Shown: positions 14,490-49,289 of the stretch, in pieces
Layout: every line of letters starts with the position of its first letter
Numbering within the stretch: position 1 is the stretch's first letter
From: Dictyostelium discoideum
Taxonomy: Eukaryota
NCBI GenBank assembly: GCA_000004695.1
Contig: CM000153.2
Coordinates: 5,312,001-5,376,000 of the forward strand
Length of the DNA stretch: 64,000 nucleotides
Direction: 5' to 3'
The notes under the pieces: generated by a model
What the model saw: the letters and a program-made list of their open reading frames with translations, nothing else
Databases searched by the model: none
What the model was told of the DNA's origin: nothing
Position numbers and translations under genes: made by a program

Positions 14490-14566
14490 CTAATAAAATT
14501 AAAAAATTTAATTAATAAATAAATATAAAGATAAAATTAAAAAAACTATTAAAAAAAAATACATAC

Positions 14567-19238: not shown

Positions 19239-19324
19239 GTATGTATTATTTTTAAAATTTTTTATTATATTTTATTTTTTACAAAATTATTAATTAAAAT
19301 TATATTATTATTTTTTTTTAAAAG

Positions 19325-22300
19325 ACCCATATCCATATAAGGCATTCTCAATTTTGAATATGTTAAGTAAATCAAATGGTAGATGTAAATCATTTGATGC
19401 ATCAGCTGATGGATTTGTTAGAGGTGAATGTATTGGTGTTGTTATTTTAAAGAATTTAAAAGATGCAATTAAAGATGGTAATAGAATTTATTGTACAATA
19501 AATGGTGCAAGTGCAAATGTTGATGGTATTGGTTATTCTGATAAATCAAATTTCTATTCACCATCATCAATTTCACAATCTGAAAATTTAAAAAATGCAA
19601 TTCAATCAACCAATGGAACTGTTAAACCATCTGATATAGATTATGTTGAAGCACATGGCACTGGTACACCAAATGGTGATCCTGTAGAAACCGAAGGTAT
19701 ATCAAAAGTTTTTAAAGATACTCGTTCAACTGATACTCCATTATTAATTGGATCATTTAAATCAAATATTGGTCATTGTGAAGCTGCTTCTGGTATTGCT
19801 TCATTAATCAAATGTTGTTTAATGTATAAAAATAAATGTTTTGCACCAAATATTCATTTTAAAACACCAAATCCAGCAATTAAATTTAAAGAATGGAATT
19901 TAAAAGTTGTAACTGAACCAATTCCATTTAATGAAAATAAAAATACTTCAATGATTATTAATAACTTTGGTGTTACTGGTTCAAATTGTTGTTTAGTATT
20001 ATCTCAATTTAATAATACAAATAAACAAAAACAACAAATGAAAACAAAAATAAATAATTATTTAATTCCATTTTCAGCAAATTCAGTTGAATCATTAAAA
20101 AAATATCAATCATTAATTATAAATAGTAAAGAAAATGAATTAAAATATAGTTTTGAAGAATTTGTTAAAAACCAAGTATTTATTAAACCAACATCACTTT
20201 ATCAAAGATCTGTAATTGTTGCAAAAGATTGGAATGATTTTAATAATGTTGAAAATCAAGTTAAATATCAAACTTCAAGTAGTACTTCTTCAAATATTAC
20301 AATTACAAATAAAAATAATAATCCAATAACTGTATTTGTATTTTGTGGTCAAGGATCACAATATAATACAATGGCATTAGAATTATATAAAAATGAAAAA
20401 GTATTTAGAAATTCGATGGATATGCTAGATAATAAAATGAAAAATTATTTTGGATATTCAATTTTAGAGAAATTAAGAGCAATTCAAGATAGTGATAAAC
20501 GTTCAGTTCATGAACAAACAATGGCACAACCATCAACTGTAATTATTCAAGTATCATTATATGAACTTTATAAACATTGGGGTATAAAAGCATCATTTAT
20601 GTTGGGTCATAGTCTTGGTGAAGTAACAACTGCTTATTGTTCAGGTATGATTGATATTGACCAATTATGTTATTTAATTTATCATAGATCAACATTACAA
20701 ATAAGAACAAATGGGTTAGGTAAAATGTTATCAATTAACATTAGTTCAGATGAATATAAAACTAACTATATGTCACGTTATCCAACCATTGAAATTGCAT
20801 GTTATAATTCACCATCATCAATTGTAATCGCAGGTAATGAACAAATTTTAAATGAAATTTCAAAAGAATTAAAAGAAAAAGAAATTTTCTCAGCAATGTT
20901 AGGAAGTTTATCAAGTTTTCATACAAGTAGTCAAAATATAATTAAAGATGATATTTTAAATTTAAATATCCAATCAAGTCAACCTGTTATTCCAACATTT
21001 TCAACAGTTACATCAAATTTATTTAATGAATCAACTATTTTTGATTCTGAATATTTCTTTGATAATATTTCAAAACCAGTTTCATTCACTCAAACAATTT
21101 CAAATTTATATAAACATATTGAAGATAATCAAATCGGTTCAAATATTGTATTCATTGAAATTGCACCACATCCAACATTATCATTTTATTTAAAACAAAT
21201 GATTCCAAAACAATCACAATACTTTAGAAATGGTGAATCAATATCAGTTTATTCAACACTTCATAAGAAAAAGAATGATGTTGAAGAATTTCAAAAATCA
21301 ATTTCACAATTATTTTGTGATGATGCTTATGATATTAATTTTAAATGTCAATTTAATAATATAAATAGCAATATTGAGGCTATTAGTAATTTTAATTTAC
21401 CATTATATCAATGGGATGATCAACATTATTGGTTAAATAAATCAATTGAACATAAAAATAATTTAATTGGACCACCAATTTCAATTCTCGGTAATTCAAT
21501 GCAAGATTCAAATCCATTTATTAAATCATATCAAACAATAATTGATACTGGAAAAGATGCATTCAAATATTTAAAAGGTCATAATGTATCTGATAAATGT
21601 TATTTCCCAGGTGCAGGTTATATTGATAATCTTTTAAAATTATATCCAAATCAAGATTTAACAATTAATTCAATTGAATTTAAAACACCTTTAATATTAT
21701 CAGATGATAATGGTCAATTTTTACAAACAAATGTTTATCAAACTGGTAAAAGTGATTATAGAGCTCAATTTCATTTTAAAGATAATAGAACAAATGTATG
21801 GGTTCAAACATGTACTGCTAATTTTCAATTATATAATAATGGTAAAGTTGATAAATTAAATTTAGAAGAAATTAAATCAACAAAATGTAATTTATCATCA
21901 ATACCATGGGATAAATTTTATCCACATATAAAAAATAGAACTGGTTTAAACTATAAAGACAAATTTCAAAATACAATTGAATGCTATCTTGGTGATAATT
22001 GTTCATTAACTGAAATATCATTAGAATTACCAGAAAACTTTCATGATCAAGAATCATTTTTTAATACACCAATTTTAGATATTTGCTTCCATGGTTCAAT
22101 TGTTTTAATTAAGGATAATTGTAAACTTGTTTTGGATAAAATTGATGGTTTTAAATTATATACATCAAACATTCCAAAAAATAGATTTGATCATTTAAGT
22201 ATTTTTGTATATACAACTATGAAATCAACAAAATCAAATTCATACAATTCAACATACACAGTAATGTTAGAAGATGGTACTGTTATACTTGAAGTTGAAA

Positions 22301-25300
22301 ATTTAATATGTACATCATTAACACCAGTTAAAGATCCATTATTAATTGAAATTCCAACTGATATGTATTATACTCCATATCTTCAATCAAAAGATTCACA
22401 AATTCAATCACCATTAGAATTTAAATCAATTTATCAAAACAATCAAGATAATGATAGCTTATTAATTCCAAATGTTGTTTTAGAAACAATTAAACCATTA
22501 ATTAATGAGCAAATGGAATTTAGAATTTTAGAATTTGGTGGTAATAATTTATCAAATTCAACTTTATTATTGAATTCAATCAATTCATTACTTGAAGAAA
22601 ATCCACATTATGAAATTGATATTGAATATACATGGAGTGATAATAATTCATCAATTTTAAAAGATGCTAAATTAGAATTATCAAAAGTAGATAAAGGTTA
22701 TTTAAGTATTCTTTATCGTTCATTAGGTTTAGATGTTGATAATTCATTATTAGAAAAACAAAAATTAAATCCATCATATTATGATTTAATTATTGTTTCA
22801 AATATTTCAAATTTAACAAAAGATATTAAATATTCATTAAATCAAATTTATCAAATTTTAACACCAAATGGTAATTTAATAATAAATGAACAACAACCAA
22901 ACAATGAAAATAATGAAAATAATGAAGATTCATTGAAAAACTTATTGGTTAATTGTAATTTCAATTCTGATATAATGATGAAATCTTCAAGTGTATCTGA
23001 TAGTGATATTAAATCAATTATTATTCAAGCTCAAAAACCATCATTAAAATTACAACCAAAAACAATAAACACTTTTGATCAAGTCATTTTATATTGTAAT
23101 CAAGATGAACAATTCCAACAACAACAACAATTAATTAATAAATTTGAAAGTCATTATAATAATAATTGTAAAATAATAAAAGTATCAACAATTGAAGAAT
23201 TTTATAAATTATCAACAACAATTACAAATAATTCAATCATTTATTTTATAAAATCAATTGAACAATTAACATTGGAAAACTTTAAATCAATAACATTTGA
23301 ATATGTTCAAATTAATCAAAAATTATATGAATTTAAATCAAAATGTACTCACGTTTTAATTACATATGATTCTCAATCAAGTAATTATTTATCATCATCA
23401 ATTTTAGGTGCAGCAAGATACTTTGATGAAATTCCAACTTTACAATTATTTACATTTGATTTTGATAAAGATTCATTAATTAATTTAGACATTTCGGTTA
23501 TAGATCATTTGATAGATCCAAAACAAAATACATTGATTGAATTCTTTATTAAAAAAAATGGTAAAGTTTATTTTGAAAGATTTAAAAAAGGTTTAAAGAA
23601 AAATTCTTTTAAATCAGAATCATATCATCAAATTACAAATGAACAAGAAATTTTAATTTCAAAATTAGATGAAAATTTAGATTATCAATTAAAATCAAAA
23701 GATTCAATTTTAAAACCATATGATATTGAAGTAGAAATTAAAGCAACTGGTTTAAATTATAAAGATTATTTAGTATATAGTGGTTTAATAAAATTAAAAG
23801 GTGATAGTGTTGATTTTGGTCTTGATTTTTCTGGTAGAGTTAGTCGTGTTGGAATTAAATCATCAAAAGAATTTAAAGTTGGTGATGAAGTTTATGGTAT
23901 TGGACAATCAACATCATCATCTCATATTATTATTGATTCAATGCATGCATGTCATAAACCATCAAAGATTACACATGTTCAAGCAGCTTCAATTCCAGCA
24001 GTTTATGCAACTTCAATTCATTCTTTATATAATATTGGTAATTTAAGAGAAGGAGAATCAATTTTAATTCATTCAGGATCTGGTGGTGTTGGATTATCAG
24101 CATTGGAAATATTAAAATCAAATAATCATTCATCTCCAATATTTGTTACAGTTGGATCAGAAGAAAAGAAACAATATCTAATTAATACCTATGGTAATTT
24201 AATCACTGGAATTTATTCAACAAGAGATACAAATTATCAAAAACAAATTAAAAACAAATTAATTGAATTAGGTTATGAAACTCATGGTGTTGATTTAATT
24301 ATTAATACTTTATCAAGTGAATTTATGGATAGCAATTTCAAATGTTTAAATCCAGAAGGTAGAATTGTAGATTTAACAATTACTCATTTAAATCCAAATG
24401 AATTTATTGATAATAATAAATTTAAATATAATTTTGGTTATCATAATATTGAATTATATTATTGTGAAAAGCCAACAATTAAGAAACTATTACAGTCAAT
24501 TTCAAAATCAATTGAAAATAATACATTAAATTATTTAATTCCAATTACAGAATTTTCAAATTCAAATATTAAAAAAGCAATTGAATACATTAATGAACGT
24601 AAACATGTTGGAAAAATTGTAATTTCTCATGATACAGATATTACTAATAAATTAATTGAAAATCAACCTAAAATTGATTACTCTTTATTGAAATCAAATT
24701 ATAAAATTAAAAATCTTGGTAAAAATGTATTGGTTACAGGTCAAACTGGTCTAATTTTAGATATTATAAATTGGATTATGAAATATAATTCAACTGTTGA
24801 AAATATAATTATTCTTTCAAAATCATCAATGAAATGGGAAATGGAATTTTTAATTAACAACAATAAGACAAAAATTAAATTCTATTATAAAAGATGTGAT
24901 ATTGGTGGTGATTCAGATTCAATTAATAAAACATTTGATAAATTGTTTACAGAAAATCCAACAATTACAAACATTGATTCAATATTCCATTTTGCAGTTG
25001 TACAAATTACAAGAAAAGTAAAAGATATTGATATGAAATCATTAAATATTTCACATGATGCAAAAACAATTGGTGCAATTAATTTACATAATCAATCAAT
25101 TAAAAGAGATTGGAAATTAAGTAATTTCATATTAGCATCTTCAATTCTTTCAAAAGTTGGTTCATTAGATCAATGTGGATATGTTTCAGCATGTTGTGTA
25201 CTTGACTCATTTTCAAAATATCGTTTATCTATTGGATTACCTGCATTATCAATTAATATTGGTGCTATGGGTGGAAGTGGAATGGTTGCAAGAAGTGAAC

Positions 25301-25779
25301 TTGTTGAAACTGTACTTAATGGTCAAGGTTATAATTTAACCTCAACAAACCAACTATTAGGTACAATTGATTTATTAATTCAAAATCCTGGTCAAGAATC
25401 AAATAATTTAATGGTTGGTAATTTTAATTTCCCAGTTTTTAATAATTTCAAACAAAAGATTCATCAAAAATTTGATTTTATTTTTAATGCTCTTGATTCA
25501 AACTCTGAAAATGGTGATGGTAGTAATATCAAAAATTCAACAAATATTAAAGATAAATTTTTAAACAAAGTATCAGAATTTCTTTCAATTGATTCATCTA
25601 AAATTAATAATGATATTAAATTAATGAATTATGGTGCTGATTCATTAATTACTGTTCAATTAAAGAATTGGGTTGATAAAGAATGGTCTCCAAATTTAAT
25701 TACAATTCATCAAATTCAATCAAATTCAATTGGTATGGTTTGTCAAATTATAAATGATAATTTTGAAAAAAAAAAATAA
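19325..25779 (+). CDS. Type I iterative PKS (plus strand), exon 2: KS-AT-DH-ER-KR-ACP, ending 26 residues after the ACP with no release domain (total 2380 aa)
   Basis: Same motif order as the minus-strand PKS. Ends ...LMNYGADSLITVQLKNWVDKEWSPNLITIHQIQSNSIGMVCQIINDNFEKKK*. Confidence 0.85.
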
Positions 25780-25967: not shown

Positions 25968-26337
25968 CTCACTGAGAAAATTATCAAACGTTATCAAATA
26001 AATAAGTTGATTTGATAATAACGTTTCTTTAAAGAAAAAATAATAAAAAAAAAAAAATCAATTATTATCAAATTATTAAGTTAATAAAAAGAAACGTTAG
26101 GTAACAAAATCATTCCCAAAGATATTTCAGATTTTTTTAATTCAACGAATTACAAATTTTTATTTTTTTAAATTTTTTTTTTCAATAAAAAAAAGAAAAA
26201 TCATCAAACAAAAAAACAAGATATTTTCCATGGTTTTTTTTTATTTTTTTTTTTTTTGCTTTTATATAAATAACGTTTATTTTTTTTTATTTTTTTTTAT
26301 TATTTTTTTATTTAAACTAAATAGTATAATAAAAAAA

Positions 26338-26401
26338 ATGGAACAAGAAAATAATAATAACAAAGACATAAAAACAATTGATAGTATCAATATCAATAAT
26401 G

Positions 26402-26472
<71 letters not shown>

Positions 26473-27834
26473 TTTGGTAGAAGGAACAGAAATAATAGAC
26501 CAAATGGTCAAAACCGTAGAGACTATGACGATAGAAGAAAGATTATATCTGAAAAACCAGAAAATCAACCAAGAAGTAATAATTATCATGGTAAAGGTAG
26601 AAGATACAATGATAGAAATAATTTAAATGTAGCTTCGTTGAATCAAAATGAATCCGTGGCAACTTCCAATACAACAACAACAACACCAACAACAACAACA
26701 CCAACAACAACACCAACAAACATAAATTCGAGTATAGAGAAAATTGAAAAAACTACATTATCAATAAAAGGATGGGGAGATAGATTACCAAAAATTGGAA
26801 AAACAATAACTTTTTTAAATTTTGAAAATTTAAGTATTCCAATTCCACAAGGTTATATACCAAATACAGTTACAAAAATTAAATTTGGTAGAATGTATAA
26901 TTGTGAATTATCGGTTGGTTCAATTCCAAATAGTGTTACCGATATACATTGGGGCAAAGGTGCAATTCCATTAGGAGGTGTGATACCAAATTCAGTTATA
27001 AATCTATCATTTAGTGATCAATTCTATCAAGATATAATACCAGGTAGTATTCCAAACTCTGTTAAATCAATTACCTTTGAAAATAGAATTGGTATTACTA
27101 AATTTGAAAGAGCCTATCATGGAAACCAAGTTAATAATGAAATCTCACCAAATGTTACACCAGTTTTACAAATTGGATCAATTCCATCATCAGTAACAAG
27201 TATTGAATTTGGTAGTTATAATTTTATTCCAAGTCCAGGTTTACTTCCAGATAGTATTAAATTATTGAAATTTGGTAAAGATTATACCCAAAAACTTTCA
27301 ATTGGATCAATACCAAACTCTGTAACAGATTTAGAACTTTCAAATAACAAATTCACATCAGAAATGATACCACCATCAGTAATAAATCTTTCATTTTATG
27401 AATGTTTTGGTGATTATGTTAATGTTGGCTCAATTCCAAATACAGTTAAATCAATTTCATTTGGTGCAAATTATAATAAACCAATCATTCAAGGAATGAT
27501 TCCACAATCAGTTGAAACAATAATATTTGGTAGAAATTTCAATAATACAATTTCACAAGATTCATTACCAAAAAATCTTAAAACATTAATATTTGGTAAT
27601 AGTCATAATCAAGTTTTTCAACCCAATGTATTACCACCATCATTAACAACTTTAGAATTTGGTGAAAGTCAAAGATTTAAAATTGATGAAAAATCATTAC
27701 CATCATTAAAAAACTTTAAATATAATAATAAAATATATGCTCAAGAAATTCCAAATCCGCCACCACTCCCAGAAGGTTCAGGTTATTTTTATTTGCAATT
27801 TAAACATTATAATGATAGAGGTTATAAAGATTAA
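26338..27834 (+). CDS. FNIP-repeat-containing protein (about 498 aa)
   Basis: About 12 tandem ~22-aa repeats of the form IPNSVTxLxFGxxFNQ (e.g. SIPNSVTDIHWGKGAIPLGGVIPNSVINLSFSDQF). N-terminal poly-Asn. The ORF-track start at 26230 is poly-T junk; the real ATG is at 26338. Confidence 0.8.
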
Positions 27835-27910: not shown

Positions 27911-28579
27911 TTAATTTGTTAAATAAATTGGATTTAAAATTTTTGAATCTGATAAAGATAAATTTAATTTAATTACTTGACAATTATTTAATGGTAAATC
28001 ATGAGGTTGAGTAAAATAATAAAAGAAATCTGCATGACCAACTATAGCAATACTTGATTCAGGTCTAGTTAATAAGAATTGTTTAAATTGTTCAACACGT
28101 TTTAAAAGTGATGATTCAGATTCTCTAAATGGAATTTTCTTAAAGTATTGATCTGTATCAATTGAAAAATTTGTTTTTAATTCAATTAATTCTTCCATTT
28201 CTGGTATCCACCATCTTTGATCGTTAATTAATGAAAAATCAAATTCTGGATATTCATTCTCAATAATTGATTTAACTCTACCATTATCATCACTTGTTGT
28301 TAATAATTCTCTATGAATTGATGATACTAAACATTTGATTGATTTATCTTTAATTAATTGTAATAATGCAATTTTAGTTGTATCTAATGCTCTTGTTAAT
28401 GGTGATGTAATCACTAATTCAATATTATTTAATAAACTATTAACATTTTCTGATAATTGATTTGCTTGTTCCTTTCCAAGTTCTGTTAATCTTGCATCAA
28501 ATAAATATGGATCTTCAAATTCATTATAATTTTTATTAAATGTTGATTCACCATGTCTAATAATATATATTTCTTTCAT
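27911..28579 (-). CDS. Histidine phosphatase superfamily (phosphoglycerate-mutase-like) protein, 222 aa
   Basis: N-terminal IYIIRHGESTFN (RHGE catalytic His motif) and the downstream IAIVGHADFF second His block. Confidence 0.7.
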   Translation of the reverse strand: MKEIYIIRHGESTFNKNYNEFEDPYLFDARLTELGKEQANQLSENVNSLLNNIELVITSPLTRALDTTKIALLQLIKDKSIKCLVSSIHRELLTTSDDNGRVKSIIENEYPEFDFSLINDQRWWIPEMEELIELKTNFSIDTDQYFKKIPFRESESSLLKRVEQFKQFLLTRPESSIAIVGHADFFYYFTQPHDLPLNNCQVIKLNLSLSDSKILNPIYLTN

Positions 28580-29429: not shown

Positions 29430-29790
29430 ATGGGAAAAAATATTATAATTTTATTTATATTATTATATATATTTTCAATTATTAGACATAGCCACCAACA
29501 ATATACAAATAATGAAATCGATTTATATGTAAATAAAAATGGAAATGATACAAGTGGAGATGGTACAATAAATTCACCATTTTTCAGTATATGTAAAATA
29601 ATAAATGTAATAAATCAAACAATATCCTCTTCTTCTTTTTCTTCTTTTTCTTCTTCTTCTTCTTCTTCATCATCATCATCATCATACCAATCGATAATTG
29701 TTAATATTGGTATTGGTAATTATTCATGCTTGGGATGCCCAATTTATCAATTAAATAATTTTAATGAAATTATATTTCAACAATATTATT

Positions 29791-29861
<71 letters not shown>

Positions 29862-30876
29862 GAAGTTATAATTTTAGATTTAAATTTAATAGTATTAAAT
29901 TCAAAAATTATAATTAACGGTATTCAATTTTTATATGAAAATAATAAAGAAGAAAAGATTAATTTTTTAATTAAAGATGAATCAGAATTTATAATGAATA
30001 ATTCAAATATTTTTATAAAATCACATTATTTATCGTTTTATTTTCAAAATAATTCAAAATTAATTATTTTTAATGAATCAAAATTTCAACAAAGTGAATC
30101 TCTTCAAAGTGATTTATATTTTGAAAGTTCAATAATAATAGTTAATAATTCAATATTAGATAATCATTTATTTTTATTTAGTAATGATCAATATATTAAA
30201 ACAATTCAATTTTTAATTAGTGATTCAACATTTTATAATTCACATATTTATATAACTGGTAATTCAAAAGTTAATTTTTTAAATTCAAATTTTAGTGGTA
30301 CAATTGATTTATCATTATTTGGTTATAATTCAATTAATAATTATAATAATAATAATAATAAAGATTCAAATAATAATAATGAATTTAATATAATTAATTG
30401 TAATTTAAAATTTAAAAGAATTATTGGAAATATTGATGGTAAAAATATATTTCAAATTGGAGGTGGTATAATTTTTAAAATTATAAATTCATTTTTAGAA
30501 ATTGAAAAAGAAGAACAATTTATTGATCAAGCGATAATTGGAAATGAAAATTCAATGATTATATTAGATAATGTTGGATTTAGTGGATTCAATGTTTATG
30601 GATCATTTTTAATATTAAATCAAAGTAAATTAATAATGAATCAAATATCAGGTATTGATATTAAAGCCAAATCATTCATTAGAGTTTATTCAAATAGTGT
30701 TTTAGAATTAAATTCAATACATTTATTAAATTTTCAAGATTTTGAATTTATAGGTGAAGGAATTGAAAAGAATTTTGCATTAATTGATATTAGATCATCA
30801 TGTAATCTAACCATTTCAAATGTTAATTTTCATTTTAATGGTTTTCCAATTTTAATGAATAATGGTGGTGGTGAAT

Positions 30877-30934
<58 letters not shown>

Positions 30935-33932
30935 TCAAAGTATAATTAATGTTTTAAATTCAACATTTTCAAATATTCAAGGATTTAAATTTCATAATTC
31001 ATTAGTTTGGTTTAGTGATGTTTCAATTGAATCAATTAATAATGTTGAAAATTTAATTAAATTATTACAGGGTACAAATTTTCAATGTAAAAATTGTTTA
31101 TTTAAAAATCCAATACAAAGTAGTAATATTTATTTATTTTCAGTATCATCAGAATCAATAGTAAAGTTAACAAATTCAATAATTAGAAATTCATCATTAA
31201 TTGCATTAATTGATGAGAAATCAAATGTAACATTTGAAAATTGTACATTTTTAAATCTTTATTCAGCAAAAGGTGAAATTTTTAAATGTTTATCAAGTTC
31301 ATCATTAACATTTGAAAATTGTAATTTTAATCAAGTTTATTGTATAACAAATGGATTTATATTAATTTCAAATTATTCAATAATTAATATTTATTCATCA
31401 CAGCAACAACAAGGAGTGTTTAATAATGAATTTAAAAATTTTGGTATTGGTATGGAACCATTTGCAAAACTAATAAATAATAGTATTGGTACTATTAATG
31501 GTATTAATATGAGTACTACAGTATTTCAATCACAATTGTTTTTAATTGATGGTGAATCACAAATTGAGATTAATAATTCAAAATTTAAAGGATTATTTAA
31601 TTTTGGTGAAATGTTTACAGTGAATGGTAGATCAACTTTAAAATTTAAAGGTTGTTCATTTATTAGTAATAGATTTTCAATATTTATTTATTCCACTCAA
31701 TCAAATGTATTTATTAATGGTATTGAATATTTGGATAATTTGGGTACATTAATTTCAAGTGATAGAGATTATATTGAATTGAATTCAATTTTAATTGATA
31801 GTGAAAATAAATCAATTTATTTTAATTATTTATTTTATTTTTTTAAATCAAATATTGGAATTAGTAATGTAACCATTTCAAATAATTATTTTATGGGTAG
31901 TATTTTAGAATCCTATGATAGTACTATCAATTTTTTTGATTTTAATTTCATTTCAAATGAAAATTTATTAAATTTAAATGAAAAGAATAATGTTAGAGTT
32001 TCATCGACAATGTTATTTAAATCATCATTTATTACATTTAGAAATTGTGAAATTTCATTCAATATTCAAAATAGTGGTGATTTTTTAACAGTGATCGATA
32101 GTGGTGTCACTAAATTTATATCAACAAATATAACAAATAATCGAATTGAAATCAATGGTGGTTATTTAGTTAGAGTTAGTGATGGACCGATGGTTAGTTT
32201 TATTAATAGTTTAATTAGTTCAACCAATTCAATAACGGGTTTAATTGGTTTATTTATCAATTCAATGGTATCATTTGATAGTAGTATTTTTATAAATAAT
32301 TCAAATTCTTATCTTGGTGGTGTAACATATTTCGATAGAAGTTCAAGATATTATGAATTAACAAGATGTTCATTTCAATTGAATTCAGCTTCAGTTGGTG
32401 GTGTATTTTATACTGAAAATTTTATTTTTAATTTTTATCAAATTTTAAAAAATAATAAATTTTATCCATATAATAATTTCACTTTAAATAAAGCAATCTA
32501 TGGTGATTTTGTTGCATCATCACCAACTCTAATTAAAATTGAATTACCAGATTTAAATTCAAGTTTAACAAAACCAACAATTAAAATTCAAGATGATTAT
32601 TTAAATTTAGTTTCTGATAAAATTTATTTTGCAAATATTATAATTACAACTGTTTATTTTAATAATTCAAATTCAAATGAAGAAGCACAACAACAACAAC
32701 AACAACAAAATAAAACAAAATATGAACAAATTTTAATTAAAGGTGGTTTAGGTACATTTAATTATAATTTTAATGCACCAATAAGTGTTAAATATTTTGT
32801 AATTAATGTAACGATTATAGATGATGTAAATGAATTTCTTTCAATTGAAATTATAAAAAATAAAACTATTTGTAAAGATTATCAATTATATAATAGTGAA
32901 AATGGTGAATGTACAACATGTCAAGTTGGATTTTATAATTATCAAGGTTCATGTATAGCTTGTAATGAAAATTTAATTTGTATGGAAGGTGATATTCATT
33001 CAATTGATGGTTATTATTTAATTAATAAAATTAATTTTAATGATAATCAAACAAATGAAATTCATTATCAAGATAGTAGTGATGATGATAGTAGTGGTGA
33101 TAATGGTATTGGAAAATTAAAAGTTTATGAATGTCCAATTGGAATTTGTTTTGAAAATAATAAATGTCCAAATGATTTATATTATGGTATACTATGTTCA
33201 AGATGTATTAATGATACAGCGATTTGGGATAGAGATATTGATAGTTCATCAAATGGAAAGAATTTAATTAGATGTTGTAAAGAATTTAAACCAATTTTAT
33301 TAATACCTTTTATAATATTTTTAATTTTATTTGGACTTTTCATTTCATTATTTAAATATAATTTAACAACATTAATAATACCAATGATTTTAATGATTCA
33401 AATTAATTCAATAATTTTCATTTCATATCCTGCTATTTACATATTACCATTATCAAGATTCTCATTCGACTTTTTTAATGATATTTGTAGTTTTAGAATG
33501 GAATATATTTGGAAATCATTTTTATCAATGATATCAATGGTATTTGTATTTTTAATTGGTTGTTCAAATTTATCATTTATAACATTAACTACAATACCAT
33601 TTTTAAAATCATTTTCACAAAAAAGTAATATCATTAAAAATAATATCGAATTTCATTATAAATATTATTATGATAATTTTAATTTTAAAAGAAATTTAAA
33701 ATCAAAATTTAATATAATCATTTTATTATTTCAACCATTTTTATTCAATTTAATTTCAATGATAATTTCAAAAGAAATTAATTCAATTAATTATTTATTA
33801 ATTGATATTTCAATTTTATTTAAAAAATCATCATCACATTACTTTTTTTTTTGTTTTTATTTAATTTTATTAATTTTAATATTTTTAATTTTAATAATTT
33901 TAATTTTAAATTGTTTTTTTTATAAAATAATT

Positions 33933-33986
<54 letters not shown>

Positions 33987-34451
33987 TATAAGAAAAAATT
34001 TTATTTTATTTTTAAAATTATTTCAATTGGTTCAACTTATTTATTATTTAATAATAATAAAAGATCAATTGAATATAAAGATCAATTTAAATGGTGGGAT
34101 TTTATTATAATTTTAAAATCAATAATAATTATAATAATTTCAATTTCAATGTTATATAATTATAAATATTATCTTTTAGTATTATCAACTATTCAATTCA
34201 TTTTCTCTTATTTACAATTTGTAATTTATCCACAAAAGAAATCTTTTAATTATAAATTAAATAATTTATTAAATTTATTACAATTAATAATTTTAGTAAC
34301 TGTAGATTCAAATATTATTATTAAAAATTTATCACTTTATAATATTGGTTTATTTATCACAATCTTTACTTCATTTTCTTTAATTTTTTCTATAATTTAT
34401 TATAATTATTTTTTAAAAATTAATAAAAATAATAAAAATAAAAAAAATTAA
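29430..34451 (+). CDS. Large secreted/membrane protein A (1673 aa): signal peptide, ~1000-aa parallel beta-helix region with Pmp-like GGV[FY]/FxxN repeats, Cys-rich EGF/TNFR-like stalk, multipass (>=7 TM) C-terminal domain
   Basis: MGKNIIILFILLYIFSIIRHS signal peptide. Recurrent NSxF.NN..GG(V/A)(F/I)Y.. repeats (VGGVFYTENF, LGGVTYFDRS). CKDYQLYNSENGECTTCQVGFYNYQGSCIACNENLIC. Hydrophobic helices from LLIPFIIFLILFGLFISLF onward. Confidence 0.7.
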
Positions 34452-34714
34452 TATTAAATAATTATTATTATTATTATTCATATAAAAAGTTTTTTTTTTT
34501 ATTTTTTTTTTTTTTTTTTCGTAGTTGTATTCTTTTTTTAATATAATAAATTTATTTTGATCAGAAAAAATTTATTAAATTAAAAAAAATTTTTTTTTTT
34601 TTTTTTTTAAAAAAAATAATACAATTTCGGAAAAAAAAAATGATTGGTTTGTGATGTGTGGAAATGAAAACCCAAATAATCAAGTGACGTGTTCAAAAAA
34701 AATTAAATGTTACT

Positions 34715-34746
<32 letters not shown>

Positions 34747-34954
34747 AAATTAAAAAAAAAAAAAAAAAAAAAATATCTTGTTGACCTTTTTTTCATTTTT
34801 TTTTTTTTTTTTTCGTAACGTCTTTTCACAAAAAAAAAAAATAAAAAAAATAAAAAAAAAAAAAATAATAATAAACGTTGACAACAATAACAACAATACA
34901 TGAAAGGAATAATACTGATTTAAAATTTCCAAAAATAAATTATATAATAAATTA

Positions 34955-35054
34955 NNNNNNNNNNNNNNNNNNNNNNNNNNNNNNNNNNNNNNNNNNNNNN
35001 NNNNNNNNNNNNNNNNNNNNNNNNNNNNNNNNNNNNNNNNNNNNNNNNNNNNNN
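34955..35054. other. Assembly gap (100 N)
   Basis: Run of n characters. Confidence 1.
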
Positions 35055-35673
35055 AATAATAATAATAATATAATAACAAAAGATATAATAGATTATAATT
35101 TTAATAATCATATTAAAAATGATAATAGTAAATTTAATAATATTTTAAAAAAATACCAAATTAATAATAATACTTTTGAAAATGGTGCAATATTAGATTT
35201 AAATGATATTGGTAGTAATATTTTATATAAAAATGAAGATAAAGAAAAAGATGAAGAAGAATATTATTATTATAAAGAAAATCAAAATATATATAATAAA
35301 ATTGGTAATGATTTAAATTATAATTTTCAATATAATGAATATATTGAAAATAATGATTTCGAAAACAATCAACCAATTGATAATTTTAATGTAGAAGGTA
35401 GTGGTGGTGGTAAACAAATAATTTCTTATTATTTATCAAAGAATGGAAATGATACAACAGGAAATGGTACAATTAATTCACCATATCTTAGTATATGTAA
35501 AATTGTAAACATAATAAATAGTTATAATGGAATTAATATATTTAAAGTTTTTATTGAAATTGGAAATTATGAAGCAGTTGAAGGTTGTACATTAAATATT
35601 ATAAATAATTCAGTAGTTAGCTTAATTTACTTTACAAAAAATGAAATAATAAATAATAATAATAATAATAATT

Positions 35674-35719
<46 letters not shown>

Positions 35720-38127
35720 TAATTATAATAATAATAAATCAAATCTTATAATACCAAATATAATAAATTTAAATATAAATTTAAAAAATTCAACATTTTT
35801 TTTAAATTATATTAATTTACATTATTTTAATGAAAAAGTTATAAATATAACATATGGTATAAATACATTTCAATTTTTAATTGAAAATAGTAATTTACAT
35901 TGTGTAAATCCAAAATTACCATATTGTAATATTTTATTTAATAAATTAAATCAAAGTTTAATCATTAATGATGATAATGAAGCAATGATTTTAATAAAAA
36001 ATTCAAATATTATTAAATTTGATTTTTATTTTAATATTATTGAAATGAATGTAGAGAATTCAAATTTATATTTTACAAGTTTATATTCATTAATTAGTCA
36101 AAATTTAACATTTTCAAAATCATATTTTAATAATACATTAATTTATTTGGTTGAATATCAAGCAATAAATGTTTCAATTGATCATTGTAAAATGATTTAT
36201 GATTTTTCAAATAATATTCAAGTGTTTTTAATGGGAACAGGGAATATATTAACAATTTCAAATTCACAAATGGAAAGTACAGGTGAATTCTTTTCATCCT
36301 ATATCACTTGTAAGAATGCAAAAGTTCAATTGATGAATGTACAATTTATAAATTGGTATTTACTTAGACCATTTATAAATCTTAGTTTAAATTCAACATT
36401 AATTATGGAGAATGTTTTTGCAAGGAAAATGTATATACCAGCATTTATTGAAATTGGTAATAGTGAACTTATAATTGATACATTGGAAATTAGTGGTAAT
36501 AAATTGGTACTAATAATTATTGAAGGTCCATCAGTGATTTCAATTAGTTATTTGACATTAAAATATCAATCAGAACAAGGTTCACCAATTATGATGAATT
36601 TTCCAGGTGGTGGATTTGGAATGAAAACTATAATCAATATCACTTCTTCAAATTTTATAAATATCGATGGTTTCACATTAAAAGATGCTCAATTAACTTT
36701 ATTTAACGTTTCAATGCATAGTGATAGTATAAATAGTTTATTTGCATTATCATCAAGTCAACTATTTTCAAGTAAAAGTACATTTAGTAGTAGTTTAATC
36801 GTTGGTAGTTATTTTTTATTTTCATTAGATTTCACATCACTAGTTGATTTAGATCGTTGTATTCTTACAAATTCATCATCACTTTTTCAAGCAAATTCAT
36901 TTTCAAATATTACAATTACAAATTCATTAATTGATTCAGTATTCTCAAGATCGGTTGCAATTGAAATTCAAGGCGGTTCATCATTTACAATGATAAATTC
37001 AATTATTAATAAAACTTATGTTGTTAGTCAAAGTTTTATATATAGTTCTTCAAATTCTGATATCATAATTCATAAATGTAATTTCTTACAATTTGTAATG
37101 GGTTTAAAACCATTGGGTAATTTTTTAAATAGTAATGTTTTCATTGATCATTTGTTATTATATCAATCATTTTTTCAAAATCAAATTTTCGTTGCAACTT
37201 CATCAATTATGTATATTAGTGATACAAAGTTATTTAATAATTCAATATATGGTAGTGAAATGTTTTTATTAAATAATCAATCTTATCTATTAATGAATAA
37301 TTCTTTAATTTATGGTAATTCAATTTCAGTTTGTTTTTCAAGTTCTCATTCATTGGCAAATATTCATAATGTTACATTTCAAAATAATTCAGGTATTTTC
37401 TTATATAGTGTTGATAGTAAAATTAGTTTATCATTATTAGAATTTTCAAAGAATCCAATTTCATCATTATATTATTTATTTTATTTTACAAATTCATCTG
37501 CAACCTTTCAACAATTAACAATCGATTCAAATTATTTTATGGGTAGTGTAATTGAAGCTCATTTCTCTGAAATTTTATTTACAAATTTAATATTTTCATT
37601 AAATCAAAATGTTGATAATTTATTAAAGGATAGAGAATCACCATCATTAGTTTTCACTCATTCAAATGTTAAAATTATAAATTCAACAATTAATTCAAAT
37701 TCACAATGGTCTTTAGATTTAATTTGGTCACAAAAATCAATTTTAATAATTAAAAATAGTTTATTCAATTCAAATTCAATACCATATAATGGTTATTTAA
37801 TTAGATTAGAAACTTGTCATCTTTCTTTAGATCATTGTTTAATATTTGGTACTCAATCAATTGAAGGTACAATTGGTTCATTTAATTCAATAATTAATGC
37901 TACAAATAATTTATTCTTACAAAATAATGCTCTTGAAATGGGTGGTTGTTTTTTTCTTTCAAATTCTCAAATTTTATCATTTTCAAATAATTCATTTTTA
38001 AATAATACTGCTTCAATTGGTGCTGCAATCTTTACAAATGGCACTTTAATTAATAATACTTTAATTATTAAATCAAATAAATTTTTAAATAATAATGCAT
38101 ATGAATATGGTGATAATATTGGTTCAT
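35055..38127 (+). CDS. Beta-helix/Pmp-like membrane protein paralog B, 5' coding part; true start unknown because it is lost in or upstream of the gap; ends at a GTAAGT donor (phase 1)
   Basis: YLSKNGNDTTGNGTINSPYLSICKIVNIINS is collinear with YVNKNGNDTSGDGTINSPFFSICKIINVINQ in paralog A. GGCFFLSNS..IGAAIFTNG Pmp-like motifs. Confidence 0.55.
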
Positions 38128-38197
38128 GTAAGTTTTTTATTATTATTATTATTATTTTTTATTTTTCATTTTTAATTTAAAATATATATTAATCTAT

Positions 38198-38248
<51 letters not shown>

Positions 38249-38253
38249 AATAG

Positions 38254-40299
38254 ATCCAACTTGGATTAGTGTTGAATATCCAGAAGATTTTGATTCAACA
38301 ATAAATTATATTAGATTATATGATAATTATTCAAATTTAGTTGCAGATAATTTTTATACAGCAAATATAATAATTTATGATTCAAGAGTTAATGAAAATA
38401 TAAGTTTAACAACATTTATTAGAGGTGGTAGTGGTGATTTTAATTATTCATTTAATGTATTTTCAATTTATGATTTTCAAATTTCAATTAATATTATTGC
38501 AGATGGATTTAATATTAATTATCTTAAATATAAAAGTCCACCAAAATGTTTAAATTTTCAAACTAGTACATTATCTGATGGTTGTATATTTTGTCCAATT
38601 AATCAAGCTGCAACACCTGAAAAAGGTGAATGTACAAAATGTGATACAAATAAATTGGTTTGTTTAAATAATGATGTTCATACATTACAAGATTATTTTA
38701 TGATTAATAATGATGTTTCAAAAGTTTATCAATGTCCATTTGGTTTATGTTCTGGTCAAAATAATTGTAATAGTAATTTATTTTTATTATCAAGTTTACA
38801 AAGTCCATTATGTTCAAGGTGTTTAAATGATTATAATAATGAAAATGATGATGAAAATCAATTTAAATATAATAATAATGAAAATAGTGGTAGTAGTGGT
38901 AATAGTAATAATAATGAAAATAGTAATAGTAATAGTGATAGTAATAGTAATAGTAATAGTAATAGTAATAGTAATAGTAATAGTAATAGTAATAGTAATA
39001 GTAATAGTAATAGTAATAGTAATAGTAATAGTAATGAAAATAATTATAATGGTGGTGATGATGATGATGATGAAAAAAATATTAATAATTATAAACCATC
39101 AAAATCAAAGAATGGATTATATTGTTGTAATAAATTTCAACCATTATTATTAATACCATTTATTTTTTGGATTTTATTTTTTGGATTATTTTTATCATTA
39201 TTTAAAAATGTTATAACTGGTACAATGATTGGTCAAATTATATTATTTTTACAATTAAATTCAATTGTATTTTATCCATTACCAAATATTTATGGTTTAC
39301 AATTATTTAGAATGTCAATTGATTATTTTGATCGATATTGTTTATTTAAATTAGATTATATTGAAAAGATTTCAATTTCATTAATCTCAATATTTTTAAT
39401 TTATTTAATTGGTATTTCAGATGTAACATCAAGATTAATTTTATCAATTTTAAAAAGATCTTTAAAATTAAAGAAACTGATTCCATTGGTAATTGAAAAA
39501 CAACTTCGAAAATTTGAATATTATAAAATGAATAGAATTAATACAAGATTAAAATCAAATTGGAATATTTATTTAATGTTAATTCAACCATTATTTCATT
39601 GTTTAATATCATTAATTGTACCAAAATCAATTGGTTCAACAACTTATTTATCAATTGATTTAACAATACTATTCATTTCAACACCAATTCAAATTGTTTT
39701 CTTTTTTTCAAGTATTGTAATTTTATTTTTATTAGGTATAATCATTCCATTGATTATATTTGTNNNNNNNNNNNNNNNNNNNNNNNNNNNNNNNNNNNNN
39801 NNNNNNNNNNNNNNNNNNNNNNNNNNNNNNNNNNNNNNNNNNNNNNNNNNNNNNNNNNNNNNNAAATCATTATAGAAAAGAATTTAGATGGTGGGATTTA
39901 ATATTTGTTTTTAAAACTATACTATTCACTTCACTATCTGTAACTTTATTGTATAATCCACCCGTTTATTTTTCAGCTTTAGTAATTTGTCAAATTGTTT
40001 ACTCTTATTCACAATTTGCATTCTCACCACAAAGAAAAGATCATATGTATAGAGTTGAAAATTTATTAAATCTATTTCAACTTTCAATATTAATCGTAAT
40101 TAATACTTCAATAATTAGAAATTTATCTTTTAATTTAATTGGTATTTTATTTACTATTGTAATTTTCTCTTGTTCTTTAATAACAATAATTTATAAATTA
40201 TTCTTTTATAAAAAATTAAAAACTATTAAAAATCATAGACTTTTAAATTTAATTATAAATGTTGATGATAATAAAAAAAAAACAAATAAAAATAAATAA
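38254..40299 (+). CDS. Paralog B, 3' exon (Cys-rich stalk plus multipass TM domain), interrupted by a 100-N gap at 39764..39863
   Basis: Intron 38128..38253 (GTAAGT..TAG). The spliced ..GDNIGS-Y-PTWISVEYPED.. aligns with ..GDFVASSPTLIKIELPD.. in A, which has no intron at this site. (AGTAAT)n-encoded (SN)n tract. Confidence 0.6.
39764..39863. other. Assembly gap (100 N)
   Basis: Run of n characters. Confidence 1.
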
Positions 40300-43377: not shown

Positions 43378-45627
<2,250 letters not shown>

Positions 45628-47560: not shown

Positions 47561-48251
47561 ATGATATTATTATATAATAATCATTTTGATGAAAACGAGA
47601 TAGAAAAAGGAATGAAAGAAATCAATAATAATAATAATATTAATATTAATAATAATATAAATAATAATAATAAATCACAAAATATAAAAAATGAAATGTA
47701 TACAATTAAAAAAAAAGAAATTATTGATATTAAATTAATAAATGATGATAATAATAACAATAATAATAATAATAGTAATTGTAGTTGTAGTAAAGAATCA
47801 TCAACTTCTTCAACATCAATTATATCACTGTCATCATTTTTTTCAAGTATAAATAATATTTATGATGAAGATGAAATTGAAAGAGCAATTGGTTTAAAAA
47901 AAAGTAATAAAATTTATAATAATACAATTATTTATAGATCAACAAGTCAACATAAAAATTTAATACCATTATATGAACATTATTATAAAGTTTCAAAATC
48001 AACTAAATTAATTTTTACAACAGATCAATTCGACCCAAAAGTTGATATAGATAATGATAATTTAATTGTATTTGCCAAAGGATTAGAACCTTTAATTCAA
48101 GAGAATTTTGAATTTTATTGTTCAGAATTAATTCATCTCTTTGAAATTTTAAAAAAACATAATGCAAATAATATGAAAATTTTATTATTATCATTAAATT
48201 CACAATATAATTCATTTTTAAATTCATCATTAATTGGTTTAATTAAATATT

Positions 48252-48316
<65 letters not shown>

Positions 48317-48712
48317 CAATTCATTTCAATTGATTTCGATAATAATTCATATTATAATAATAATATTTTCAATAATATTGAATTAATTATGACGAATTTT
48401 ATTAATTATAATAATATAAATAATAATAATATAAATAATAATAATAATATAATTCAAATTATAAATAATAAAATATTTAAAGAATATAATCAAATGATTG
48501 ATGAAAATTTTAATAATAAAAATAAAATCGATAAGGAAGATGATAAATTTGGTAAGACAGTATTAATTACGGGTCAAGAAGGTTTATCATTACAATTTTT
48601 AAAATGGATTATAAATAAAAGAAATACCAATATAAAAGATATAATTGTTGTATCAAAATCATCAATTGATTGGGAAATTGAAAAATTAATTGAATATTGC
48701 ACCACCAATAAT

Positions 48713-48786
<74 letters not shown>

Positions 48787-48928
48787 CGATAATCAAATTA
48801 CAATTCATTTCAAAAATTTAGATATTTCAAAAATGTATTCAATTAAAAATTTATTAAATCAAATTTATAAAGATAATAATATATCACCCGTTGAATCTAT
48901 ATTTCATTTCTCTAATAATAACAATATA

Positions 48929-49012
<84 letters not shown>

Positions 49013-49255
49013 TTTAAGAAATTTCATGATTGTAGTTCAAATGGTTCATTAAATCTACATCAAATATCAATTGAAATGAAATGGAATTTAAAAACATTTT
49101 TATTAAATGGTATGAATATTAGCAACAACAATAATAATAATCTTGGTGAAATTAGTTCAAATGAAGTTTTAGAATCATTAAATAATTACAGAAAATCAAT
49201 TGGATTATCATCAAGTTTAATAAAATGGTCACCATCAAATATTTATGATAGTAAC

Positions 49256-49289
<34 letters not shown>

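Follow-up and report, generated by a model that had tools for sequence, protein, structure and literature searches.

Within a 64,000-nucleotide window of Dictyostelium discoideum DNA, two neighboring genes, designated here A and B, are two old paralogs in tandem and belong to a family of polytopic slime-mould (Eumycetozoa) glycoproteins presumed to lie at the cell surface. Judged by sequence, the Cys-rich stalk and nine-helix (9-TM) bundle of this family are the "conserved core" by which the cysteine repeat modular proteins (CRMPs) of Apicomplexa and ciliates are defined. On this analogy, A and B would most likely serve as CRMP-like surface sensors of contact or adhesion. CRMPs are needed by malaria and Toxoplasma parasites to invade host cells.

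Gene structure and genomic setting

Gene A was confirmed as a single uninterrupted open reading frame of the length given in a preliminary description of this DNA. Gene B (~35058-40299) lies head-to-tail 3' of gene A and contains one intron and two assembly gaps, leaving 1527+144 visible residues (Table 1). The frame of gene B stays open from 34878, across the first gap, to 38127. Compared to gene A, the visible part has an N-terminal extension of at least 115 extra in-frame residues, with no methionine. A signal peptide had been assigned to both proteins; this agrees with the hydrophobic N-terminus of A, which would presumably be cleaved, while the corresponding part of B is hidden by the gap. 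The intron is present in B only, as previously described: in the A/B alignment, the gene A frame runs on at the homologous site. Once it is spliced out, the reading frame continues and the match to A resumes (YGDNIGS joined to YPTWISVEYP in B vs. YGDFVASSPTLIKIELP in A).

The two genes are collinear, and global alignment gives an identity of about 36%. In tblastn comparison, identity was 27% over 969 aa (E 7e-36) and 39% in the TM region (E 3e-28). Their low-complexity inserts differ as reported, (SN)n in B and D/S-rich in A, and sit at different places, that of A separating the two Cys modules. The searched protein collections contained neither sequence as such, and a paralog was detected on a contig of D. 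discoideum AX4. The region is of D. discoideum nuclear type; its GC content is about 20%, and PKS genes and an FNIP-repeat gene are located nearby.

Table 1. Features of genes A and B (positions within the window).
Feature	Position	Strand	Basis or remark
Gene A CDS, complete, single exon	29430..34451	+	1673 aa + stop; ORF list and translation
Gene A signal-peptide-like hydrophobic N-terminus, aa 1-24, MGKNIIILFILLYIFSIIRHSHQQ	29430..29501	+	Kyte-Doolittle peak aa 1-19
Gene A beta-helix ectodomain, aa ~27-1000	29508..32429	+	Several poly-N/poly-S inserts
Gene A N-cap motif YVNKNGNDTSGDGTINSPFFSICK	29526-29615	+	Inside beta-helix ectodomain
Gene A Pmp-type FxxN...GGxx(Y/F) pairs, aa 954-995, FINNSNSYLGGVTYF ... 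FQLNSASVGGVFYT	32289..32414	+	Motif scan
Gene A beta-sandwich linker domain, aa ~1013-1143	32466..32858	+	AF2 strands, construct residues 543-671, pLDDT about 70-85
Gene A Cys-rich stalk, aa 1148-1283	32871..33278	+	13 Cys; Cys positions
Gene A nine-helix membrane domain, aa 1288-1663	33291..34418	+	Hydropathy; AF2 helices, pLDDT about 90; CRMP-core profile homology
Assembly gap over gene B 5' end (start codon, signal peptide)	34955..35054	.	100 N
Gene B exon 1, visible part after gap	35058..38127	+	Open frame; alignment to A
Gene B N-cap motif	35427-35468	+	
Gene B Pmp-like motifs, exon 1	37911-38042	+	
Gene B intron, 126 nt, phase 1	38128..38253	+	GTAAGT...TAG; sequence; T-rich, then A-rich
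Gene B exon 2, first part: beta-sandwich, Cys-rich stalk, insert, CC pair, TM1 into TM5	38254..39763	+	
Gene B Cys-rich stalk	from 38544	+	
Gene B (SN)n + poly-D insert	about 38922-39074	+	(SN)n about 38922-39040
Gene B CC pair and TM1	39117 onward	+	
Assembly gap within gene B cytosolic loop after TM5	39764..39863	.	100 N
Gene B C-terminal part, YRKEFRWWD motif and TM6-TM9	39865..40299	+	144 aa + stop

Beta-helix ectodomain

The dozens of ~25-aa repeats with GG[VA][FIY] and FxxN motifs reported in the preliminary description were not recovered. A single match to the strict pattern GG[VA][FIYLV] was present in the helix region of A and none in that of B, FxxN was no more frequent in A than in shuffled sequences (14 vs. 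17.3 +/- 3.6), and the ~25-aa periodicity was weak (z about 2-3). Only two FxxN...GGxx pairs per protein are recognizable, at the C-terminal end of each helix; in A, their positions are kept in the family consensus FxxNxxxxGG ... NxFxxNxAxxxGGVxY. Enrichment was observed for the looser rung pattern [FIVL]xN[NCS]x[FAIVL] (22 vs. 6.6 +/- 2.5 in shuffles).

A beta-helix was predicted for A, in an AF2 model starting after residue 473, and exon 1 of gene B also holds one. AF2 is reported to over-predict confident beta-solenoids for repeat sequences (bioRxiv 2024.10.30.621056). The Pfam search suggested earlier gave no match for A or B at E<=1, though relatives do match: Beta_helix was found in 6 of the 28 family members (best 2.4e-13) and Chlam_PMP in 5 (best 9e-8), so the fold is supported independently of AF2. 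The family profile also pulls out Chlam_PMP and Beta_helix proteins. The lists of structural matches were filled by beta-helices, the best being passengers of bacterial adhesins and autotransporters (Vag8, pertactin, Fap2, PfbA, and Ag43). Conservation within the family is lowest in the helix region, with a mean column identity of 16-18% over full-length alignments. For A and B, the term "Pmp-like" thus covers no more than the fold and a distant similarity of profiles; they have no Chlam_PMP match, each retains only about two canonical motif pairs, and the autotransporter barrel, the defining feature of Pmps, is absent.

Cys-rich stalk and membrane domain

The stalk of A consists, in order, of an ephrin-receptor/GCC2_GCC3-like CxxC module, the D/S-rich insert, which is disordered, a module resembling DUF7630 (YECPIGIC...LCSRC), and a CC pair immediately N-terminal to TM1. 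Both strings formerly quoted for the Cys-rich module are present. Seven cysteines are nearly invariant across the family (C1235, C1240, C1246, C1259, C1282, C1283, and C1353 in gene A numbering).

The earlier count of at least seven TM helices was raised to nine by hydropathy and AF2. In A, an extracellular beta-hairpin, YLLIDISI, is predicted between TM4 and TM5, and the motif YKDQFKWWD precedes TM6; the domain also has a poly-N cytosolic loop. The charge distribution follows the positive-inside rule, with 20 K+R residues inside vs. 6 outside.

Family distribution and relationship to CRMPs

Among 1.84 billion proteins searched, the family comprised 26 representatives from several Dictyostelium species, Tieghemostelium, Acytostelium, Heterostelium, and Physarum. 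A paralog family, suggested earlier as a point to check, does exist, with several members in D. discoideum itself. Other dictyostelid paralogs with a beta-helix and nine TM helices scored from 1e-40 to 1e-138 against the family TM profile, and some are automatically named "Right handed beta helix domain-containing protein" in UniProt. Beyond the family, the TM profile matched Anaeramoeba P0043 at 4e-17, as well as two eukaryote-like contig proteins, P0039 and P0044, in which strong Chlam_PMP repeats (1.6e-33 and 1e-30, respectively) occur together with the same TM domain. An hhalign comparison of the family with P0033/43/48 gave 98.7% (E 3.6e-16). Family members weakly matched DUF7630, Ephrin_rec_like, and TNFR_ELAPOR1.

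The TM profile also recognized the core of D. discoideum Q86I19 (2.4e-21), the whole core of TgCRMPA (7.2e-10), Gregarina CRMPA (2.3e-5), and Chromera proteins (5e-5 and 1e-4); TgCRMPB did not match it significantly (E 1.3). Alignment of the family with the CRMP alignment by hhalign gave 97.0% (E 1.1e-10) but spanned only the C-terminal 115-137 columns. DUF7630 matched the TgCRMPA core at 8.7e-18. Since A alone has no Pfam match and phmmer with A found no CRMP, the link is visible with profiles only. Q86I19 and "two additional" Dictyostelium proteins with similar 9-TM models have already been named CRMP homologs, Q86I19 serving as homolog/outgroup (Singer et al., 2023; PMC9815656). The design once considered unusual is therefore neither unusual nor new: beta-helix, Cys-rich module, and nine TM helices form the standard layout of a eukaryotic family that includes dictyostelids, Physarum, Anaeramoeba, and eukaryote-like contigs.

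Possible mode of action and alternatives

Each protein is built, from the N-terminus on, as a signal peptide (visible for A alone), a beta-helix rod, a beta-sandwich, a stalk rich in disulfides, and a 9-TM bundle, in a type-I-like arrangement with the N-terminus of the bundle outside and the C-terminus inside. The rod is a parallel, right-handed beta-helix reaching about 1000 aa and resembles the passengers of autotransporters and Pmps. We propose that it may recognize a ligand on a surface, probably a glycan or the surface of another cell or of prey; the rigid stalk could then relay the binding event to the 9-TM core, and signalling from this core would be directed at the cytoplasm or at the exocytic machinery.

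It is unlikely that A and B are passive adhesins or coat proteins with the helix as a structural or adhesive rod, as in chlamydial Pmps, Ag43, and pertactin, on a non-signalling 9-TM anchor. The structural matches to bacterial passengers and the Pmp-type motifs kept at the helix end would suit such a function; however, conservation within the family is highest in the TM core, and a plain anchor would need neither nine helices nor such conservation. The YLxIDxS hairpin, the FKWWD...R motif, and the loop cysteine C1353 are common to relatives from slime moulds to Apicomplexa. For a polysaccharide-active enzyme, that is, a membrane-anchored glycosidase, lyase, or epimerase of pectate-lyase fold with polysaccharide of the slime sheath, stalk, or spore coat, or the cell walls of prey, as its substrate, the probability appears low. 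The structural matches (7-15% identity) reflect the generic fold, the best one being a non-enzymatic passenger; no glycosidase or lyase Pfam family was matched by any of the 28 members, a brief inspection identified no catalytic-site conservation, and the presumed catalytic region would be the least conserved one.

The membrane domain could instead be a divergent fungal Flc/Pkd2 "TRP" domain (PF06011), conducting Ca2+ or another solute in response to pulling on, or binding to, the ectodomain, which we regard as rather doubtful. Flc/Pkd2 proteins, such as S. pombe Pkd2, share the broad layout of signal peptide, extracellular domain, central multi-pass domain, and cytosolic tail, and S. pombe Pkd2 is reported to be Ca2+-permeable under membrane stretch. 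Distant proteins found with the Cys+TM profile match PF06011, namely P0033 (7e-10, above the curated cut-off) and P0043 (precomputed annotation), and Physarum P0025 scores 0.0019. However, the P0033 match is confined to the last third of PF06011 (positions 278-402 of 426), only 1 of the 28 family members matches it, below the cut-off, and A and B do not at E<=1. The cores of TgCRMPA, TgCRMPB, and Q86I19 likewise lack a match, A and B have no ML-like TRP_N domain, and no pore or selectivity feature was identified; the relationship to Flc/Pkd2 is at best remote and partial. A divergent G-protein-coupled receptor is highly improbable. Pmp-like N-termini do occur on the class C GPCRs GrlP, GrlQ, and GrlR of Dictyostelium (PMC1885808). 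TgCRMPA and PfCRMP1 receive a GPCR-like PANTHER call, but the authors of that work themselves hold that CRMPs are not bona fide GPCRs (PMC9670195); the helices are nine, not seven, and neither A and B nor the family members match any 7tm Pfam family.

Comparison with known systems

Unlike chlamydial Pmps and type V autotransporter passengers (Vag8, pertactin, Ag43), A and B are eukaryotic, have about two motif pairs each, lack the Pmp middle domain and C-terminal beta-barrel, and are anchored by alpha-helices via the Cys-rich stalk. A second precedent in Dictyostelium for a Pmp-like ectodomain on a multi-pass receptor is provided by GrlP, GrlQ, and GrlR, encoded on chromosome 5, with a Pmp-like region in the long N-terminus (PMC1885808). 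These proteins, compared here by description, are family 3 (class C) GPCRs, in contrast to the nine-helix A and B.

Close counterparts are Q86I19 (XP_643780.1), with signal peptide, PbH1 repeats, Cys-rich core, and TM helices, and the other dictyostelid paralogs, among them DDB_G0272102/Q55A59, the DDB_G0272352 locus, and D. purpureum F0ZYZ5, all of the same architecture. Compared to them, A and B are more AT-/Asn-rich, at most about 30-37% identical, and arranged as a tandem pair.

A and B have several features in common with CRMPs (TgCRMPA/B, Plasmodium CRMP1-4, and Tetrahymena CRMP1/2): the ectodomain is large and modular, the Cys-rich stalk is ephrin-receptor/EGF-like and includes the DUF7630 module, the 9-TM core has the same orientation (N-terminus outside, C-terminus inside), and the motifs YLxxxxSxxC, Yxx(F/Y)(W/Y)W(D/E)...R, and QPFxxR recur. 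The make-up of the ectodomain is not the same: CRMPs carry MAR, Kringle, lectin, and EGF modules, A and B an almost pure beta-helix of about 1000 aa. The host of A and B is a free-living amoebozoan without rhoptries or mucocysts, unlike the CRMP organisms; to our knowledge, Dictyostelium has no rhoptry-like organelle, and the analogy may therefore not transfer. CRMPs are required for rhoptry and mucocyst exocytosis and have been proposed to act as contact sensors (PMC9670195). MIC15 and TSP1 are partners of CRMPs. PbH1 (SMART parallel beta-helix) repeats, documented for Q86I19, are among the domains of the proteins analyzed in PMC9815656. CRMPs, like A and B, occur as paralog pairs; CRMPA associates with CRMPB in a complex, and a heterodimer of the two TM domains has been predicted (PMC9815656); A and B might pair as a heteromer in the same manner.

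Gene structure and paralogy of A and B

Gene A encodes a protein of 1673 aa in one open reading frame (ORF). Gene B lies head-to-tail behind it; its frame is open from the first assembly gap to position 38127, where a phase 1 intron begins, and exon 2 ends at the second gap, followed by a 144-aa tail up to position 40299. The spliced junction of B (YGDNIGS/YPTWISVEYP) aligns to YGDFVASSPTLIKIELP of A, which is intron-free at the corresponding position. A and B are collinear end to end, with a global identity of about 36% (tblastn: 27% over 969 aa, E 7e-36; TM region: 39% identical, E 3e-28). ORFs, splicing, alignment and tblastn together confirm the tandem paralogs with a B-only intron that the preliminary description had proposed. 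A third copy within the window was ruled out by tblastn.

The gaps hide the start codon of gene B and part of its TM5–TM6 loop, and the frame shifts across the second gap. The conserved N-terminal motif of B is preceded by at least 115 in-frame residues. Since the start codon of B is hidden, the signal peptide initially assigned to both proteins can be claimed for A only, from hydropathy. The Cys-rich strings and low-complexity inserts are present as described, but the inserts occupy different positions in A and B.

Features of genes A and B and of the surrounding window (nucleotide positions in the window; aa, residues of protein A)
Feature	Position	Details	Basis
Gene A	29430-34451 (+)		ORF
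Gene B	about 35058-40299 (+)	tandem paralog of A	
Assembly gaps	34955-35054 and 39764-39863	exactly 100 N each, both within gene B	
Gene B intron	38128-38253	126 nt, GTAAGT...TAG, phase 1	
A, continuous stack	aa 503-998	three-stranded rungs	AF2, pLDDT about 90
A, beta-sandwich	aa 1013-1143		AF2
A, small disulfide-type modules	aa 1153-1273	D/S-rich insert disordered	AF2
A, helices	aa 1288-1672		AF2, pLDDT about 90
A, TM1-TM3	aa 1288-1308, 1316-1335, 1359-1378		hydropathy + AF2
A, TM4-TM6	aa 1419-1443, 1468-1498, 1556-1573		hydropathy + AF2
A, TM7-TM9	aa 1578-1599, 1605-1625, 1636-1663		hydropathy + AF2
FxxN...GGxx pairs	A, aa 954-995; B, 37911-38042		motif scan
tRNA-like gene	947-1030 (+)	4-base anticodon (gtag)	ARAGORN
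Type-I PKS	7738-14460 (-)		Pfam
Short ORF upstream of PKS	14508-15230 (-)		
Short ORF upstream of PKS	18551-19255 (+)		
Type-I PKS	19354-25779 (+)		Pfam
FNIP-repeat protein	26230-27834 (+)	6 repeats; directly upstream of A	PF05725, 1.6e-67
Histidine-phosphatase-superfamily ORF	27911-28579 (-)	directly upstream of A	
749-aa ORF	43378-45627 (-)	mostly poly-N/poly-T/poly-S	no Pfam match
596-aa ORF	47561-49351 (+)	partial weak KR match, model positions 2-89	PF08659, 1.3e-6
V-type ATPase catalytic subunit A	58324-59895 (-)	coincides with GC peak of 0.34 at 58-60 kb	
Phenylalanyl-tRNA synthetase alpha	62001-63464 (+)		

Genomic surroundings

The GC content of the window is about 0.12–0.34, mostly near 0.2, and spliceosomal GT...AG introns together with two exact 100-N runs identify it as a gapped nuclear assembly. 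Its genes are typical of Dictyostelium: two type-I PKS, an FNIP-repeat protein, a histidine phosphatase and the housekeeping genes for V-type ATPase subunit A and phenylalanyl-tRNA synthetase alpha. A bacterial or HGT-contaminant origin of A and B was ruled out by the spliceosomal intron, the Dictyostelium base composition and the neighbouring genes.

The two large PKS genes are divergently oriented and highly similar, another tandem or inverted paralog pair within the window, with the domain order KS-AT-DH-MT?-ER-KR-ACP (Pfam). As each long ORF starts within the KS domain, the short upstream ORF probably contains the N-terminal exon. The 596-aa ORF may belong to a PKS, as a fragment or pseudogene, or encode a divergent short-chain reductase. 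The low-complexity coding sequence of the 749-aa ORF is of a kind typical of Dictyostelium. For the tRNA-like gene, a false positive and a Dictyostelium tRNA with an intron are both conceivable.

Predicted structure and membrane topology

The AF2 model covers residues 474–1673 of A (A number = construct residue + 473) and was built with a 30-row family alignment; the mean pLDDT was 82.5 with this alignment and 38 for the single C-terminal sequence. Hydropathy and AF2 agree on nine TM helices. The loops of A carry 20 K+R residues on the predicted inside vs. 6 on the outside, counts that predict an outside ectodomain and a cytosolic C-terminus. A PDB sequence-profile search with the C-terminal alignment gave no match at E ≤ 10. 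Overall, the architecture originally read from A and B was borne out, and the feature is real.

The "dozens" of GG[VA][FIY]/FxxN repeats did not survive a motif scan: strict GG[VA][FIYLV] occurs once in A and not at all in B, the FxxN count of A (14) is no higher than in shuffles (17.3 ± 3.6), and recognizable FxxN...GGxx pairs, only two per protein, are degenerate and confined to the membrane-proximal end of the helix region. Enrichment is seen for a less strict, rung-like pattern, [FIVL]xN[NCS]x[FAIVL] (22 vs. 6.6 ± 2.5 in shuffles), and hydrophobic autocorrelation is only weakly periodic at about 25 aa (z about 2–3). The N-terminus has a conserved motif, (Y)VxxxGxDxxGxGTxxxPFxS(I/L), which may be akin to the cap usual at that end of bacterial beta-helix proteins. 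If unbroken along about 970 aa, with about 24 aa to a rung, the rod would comprise roughly 40 rungs.

AF2 can hallucinate beta-solenoids from repeats (bioRxiv 2024.10.30.621056), so independent support is important, and Pfam and profiles supply it. A and B themselves have no Pfam match at E ≤ 1, PF02415 (Chlam_PMP) included. Among the 28 family members, five match PF02415 (best 9e-8) and six match Beta_helix (best 2.4e-13), and the family profile also retrieves Chlam_PMP and Beta_helix proteins. The "Pmp-like" label is thus apt as to the beta-helix and the Chlam_PMP matches of relatives, but its motif detail was overstated for A and B.

The family in slime moulds

The C-terminal profile, run as an HMM exhaustively against 1.84 billion representative proteins, matched only 26, mostly of 1300–1950 aa and matched at their C-terminus. 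The suspected genome-wide paralog family exists: D. discoideum has several members, including DDB_G0272102/Q55A59 and a full-length form of the DDB_G0272352 locus. Further members occur in D. purpureum, D. firmibasis, D. dimigraforme, Tieghemostelium lacteum, Acytostelium subglobosum, Heterostelium album and Physarum polycephalum. Some bear the automatic UniProt name "Right handed beta helix domain-containing protein". A literature search by locus tag and accession found no mention of the family members so queried, and no record matched the exact sequence of A or of DDB_G0272352. Whole protein A retrieved no relatives from a word-indexed database, since poly-N and hydrophobic words took up the list of candidates; a Cys+TM fragment retrieved one paralog only, DDB_G0272352, annotated outside the window on the 8,484,197-bp D. 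discoideum AX4 contig.

The AX4 model of this locus (P0001, 313 aa) resembles a C-terminal fragment missing some TM helices, and its counterpart in another D. discoideum strain (P0002, KAM9971439.1) is a full-length family member of 1655 aa; truncation or a wrong prediction in AX4 is probable. Two T. lacteum members, P0014 (DLAC_10210) and P0017 (DLAC_10212), have near-consecutive tags on the same 540,962-bp contig; thus neighbouring paralogs may recur in the family.

The best-conserved part of the family is the core, i.e., the Cys-rich part plus the nine TM helices. Near-invariant residues are C1235, C1240, C1246, C1259, C1282, C1283 and, in a loop, C1353. Two family members weakly match Ephrin_rec_like or TNFR_ELAPOR1. 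A compositional artefact was ruled out by the conservation of Cys and TM motifs across species of ordinary composition.

Wider relatives and the link to CRMPs

Searching with the 28-sequence profile missed the family itself but revealed distant Pmp/TRP-type relatives. Both the full-length profile and a local TM-only profile detect proteins of Anaeramoeba (P0043, 4e-17 with the TM profile) and of eukaryote-like contigs. On the same TM domain, the relatives P0039 and P0044 carry nine (1.6e-33) and ten (1e-30) Chlam_PMP repeats, respectively. The dictyostelid core aligned by hhalign to P0033/P0043/P0048 with 98.7% (E 3.6e-16, 307 columns) and to P0030/P0045 with 97.5% (E 5e-12); of the latter pair, P0030 is strongly Pmp-like. 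Common motifs are, after TM4, an extracellular hairpin (Y/F)LxxDxS and, before TM6, Yxx(F/Y)(K/R)(W/Y)W(D/E)...R. In all wider relatives the beta-helix or Pmp repeats are followed by a Cys-rich module and then the same multi-pass domain, and the architecture is therefore a recurrent eukaryotic design, found also in the literature, rather than the unusual one that it first appeared to be.

Toxoplasma CRMPs have a Cys-rich region and nine C-terminal TM helices (PMC9670195, PMC9815656), and Cys-rich modules plus nine TM form the conserved core of the CRMP-like superfamily (PMC9815656). The family TM profile matched the cores of D. discoideum Q86I19 (E 2.4e-21), TgCRMPA (E 7.2e-10; profile 4–384, CRMPA 2–468), Gregarina CRMPA (E 2.3e-5) and two Chromera proteins (E 5e-5 and 1e-4); the match to the TgCRMPB core was not significant (E 1.3). 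An hhalign comparison with a five-sequence CRMP alignment gave 97.0% (E 1.1e-10) and covers only the C-terminal 115 columns. From these profile matches, A and B are classified as uncharacterised CRMP-like superfamily members of a beta-helix form. No experimental structure was found for the CRMP 9-TM core.

The Dictyostelium–CRMP link is already in print, in passing: Singer et al. name Q86I19 and "two additional" Dictyostelium proteins as CRMP homologs, and A or B may be one of the two (PMC9815656). In their SMART table, Q86I19 has PbH1 (parallel beta-helix) repeats between a signal peptide and TM helices among its features. Q86I19 differs in sequence from both A and B.

Proposed function and alternatives

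What is documented here for A and B is their gene models, their paralogy, their fold and predicted topology, and the family and superfamily to which they belong; their function can be proposed by analogy. In Toxoplasma and Tetrahymena the CRMP core is required for triggered exocytosis, and a contact sensor has been proposed (PMC9670195, PMC9815656). A and B would reach the surface through the secreted pathway, each with a rigid beta-helix projecting from a disulfide-locked stalk joined to the conserved 9-TM bundle. They are most likely sensors of contact or adhesion, coupled to a response in the cytoplasm or at the membrane. CRMPA is complexed with CRMPB, and their TM domains are predicted to form a heterodimer (PMC9815656); A and B, too, may act as a pair.

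A passive adhesin, with the TM domain as a mere anchor, seems unlikely: the core is conserved far above the ectodomain, which speaks against this role and fits a sensor. That the bundle is a TRP-like channel is quite improbable. The distant relatives P0033 and P0043 do match PF06011 (TRP; fungal Flc/Pkd2), but only over the last third of the model (P0033: 38.7 bits, positions 278–402 only). A and B have no PF06011 match at E ≤ 1, the best family member, P0025, reaches 17.5 bits vs. a gathering cut-off of 28.5, and CRMP cores and Q86I19 have no match; the TRP link of the core is remote and unproven. We give very little weight to a membrane-anchored glycan enzyme and hardly any to a GPCR (class C Grl or any other 7TM protein), whose seven-helix bundle contrasts with the nine helices of A and B; A, B and the 28 relatives match no 7tm Pfam family.

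The sensor reading can be extended, at the price of becoming rather unlikely as a whole: the CRMP core would be older than Alveolata, an ancient module by which eukaryotes sense contact, and A and B a CRMPA/CRMPB-like heterodimer whose beta-helix rods recognise prey or cell-surface glycans and elicit regulated secretion, Ca2+ entry or adhesion signalling. If so, Dictyostelium would offer a tractable free-living genetic model for how apicomplexan CRMPs trigger rhoptry discharge. The core occurs in Amoebozoa as well as in Alveolata, Anaeramoeba and eukaryote-like contigs and is therefore unlikely to be an adaptation to parasitism. In Dictyostelium and related slime moulds, the present analysis places a multi-paralog family in which this core bears a simple beta-helix ectodomain; it also improves the annotation of a number of proteins named "hypothetical" or "right-handed beta-helix" and supplies candidate receptors for adhesion or prey recognition. 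It revealed no new mechanism; its value lies in annotation and hypothesis, and mainly in a tractable model of the CRMP core, whose role can be addressed in a haploid organism with easy knock-outs.

Comparison with known systems

With chlamydial Pmp and other type V autotransporters, A and B share a right-handed parallel beta-helix of the passenger type. The multiple FxxN and GGA(I/L/V) tetrapeptide repeats of chlamydial Pmp (PF02415) are lacking in A and B, and no autotransporter Pfam family was matched by A, B or the 28 relatives. In place of the C-terminal outer-membrane beta-barrel of autotransporters, A and B have nine alpha-helical TM segments. The juxtamembrane Cys module of CRMPs, DUF7630, which follows an ephrin-receptor/EGF-like module, is strong in the TgCRMPA core (8.7e-18) and weak, below the cut-off, in three family members (0.0005–0.004); A and B themselves have no Pfam match, but their Cys pattern aligns. 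With bona fide CRMPs, A and B share profile homology of the core and nine TM helices in a predicted orientation with the ectodomain outside and the C-terminus in the cytosol.
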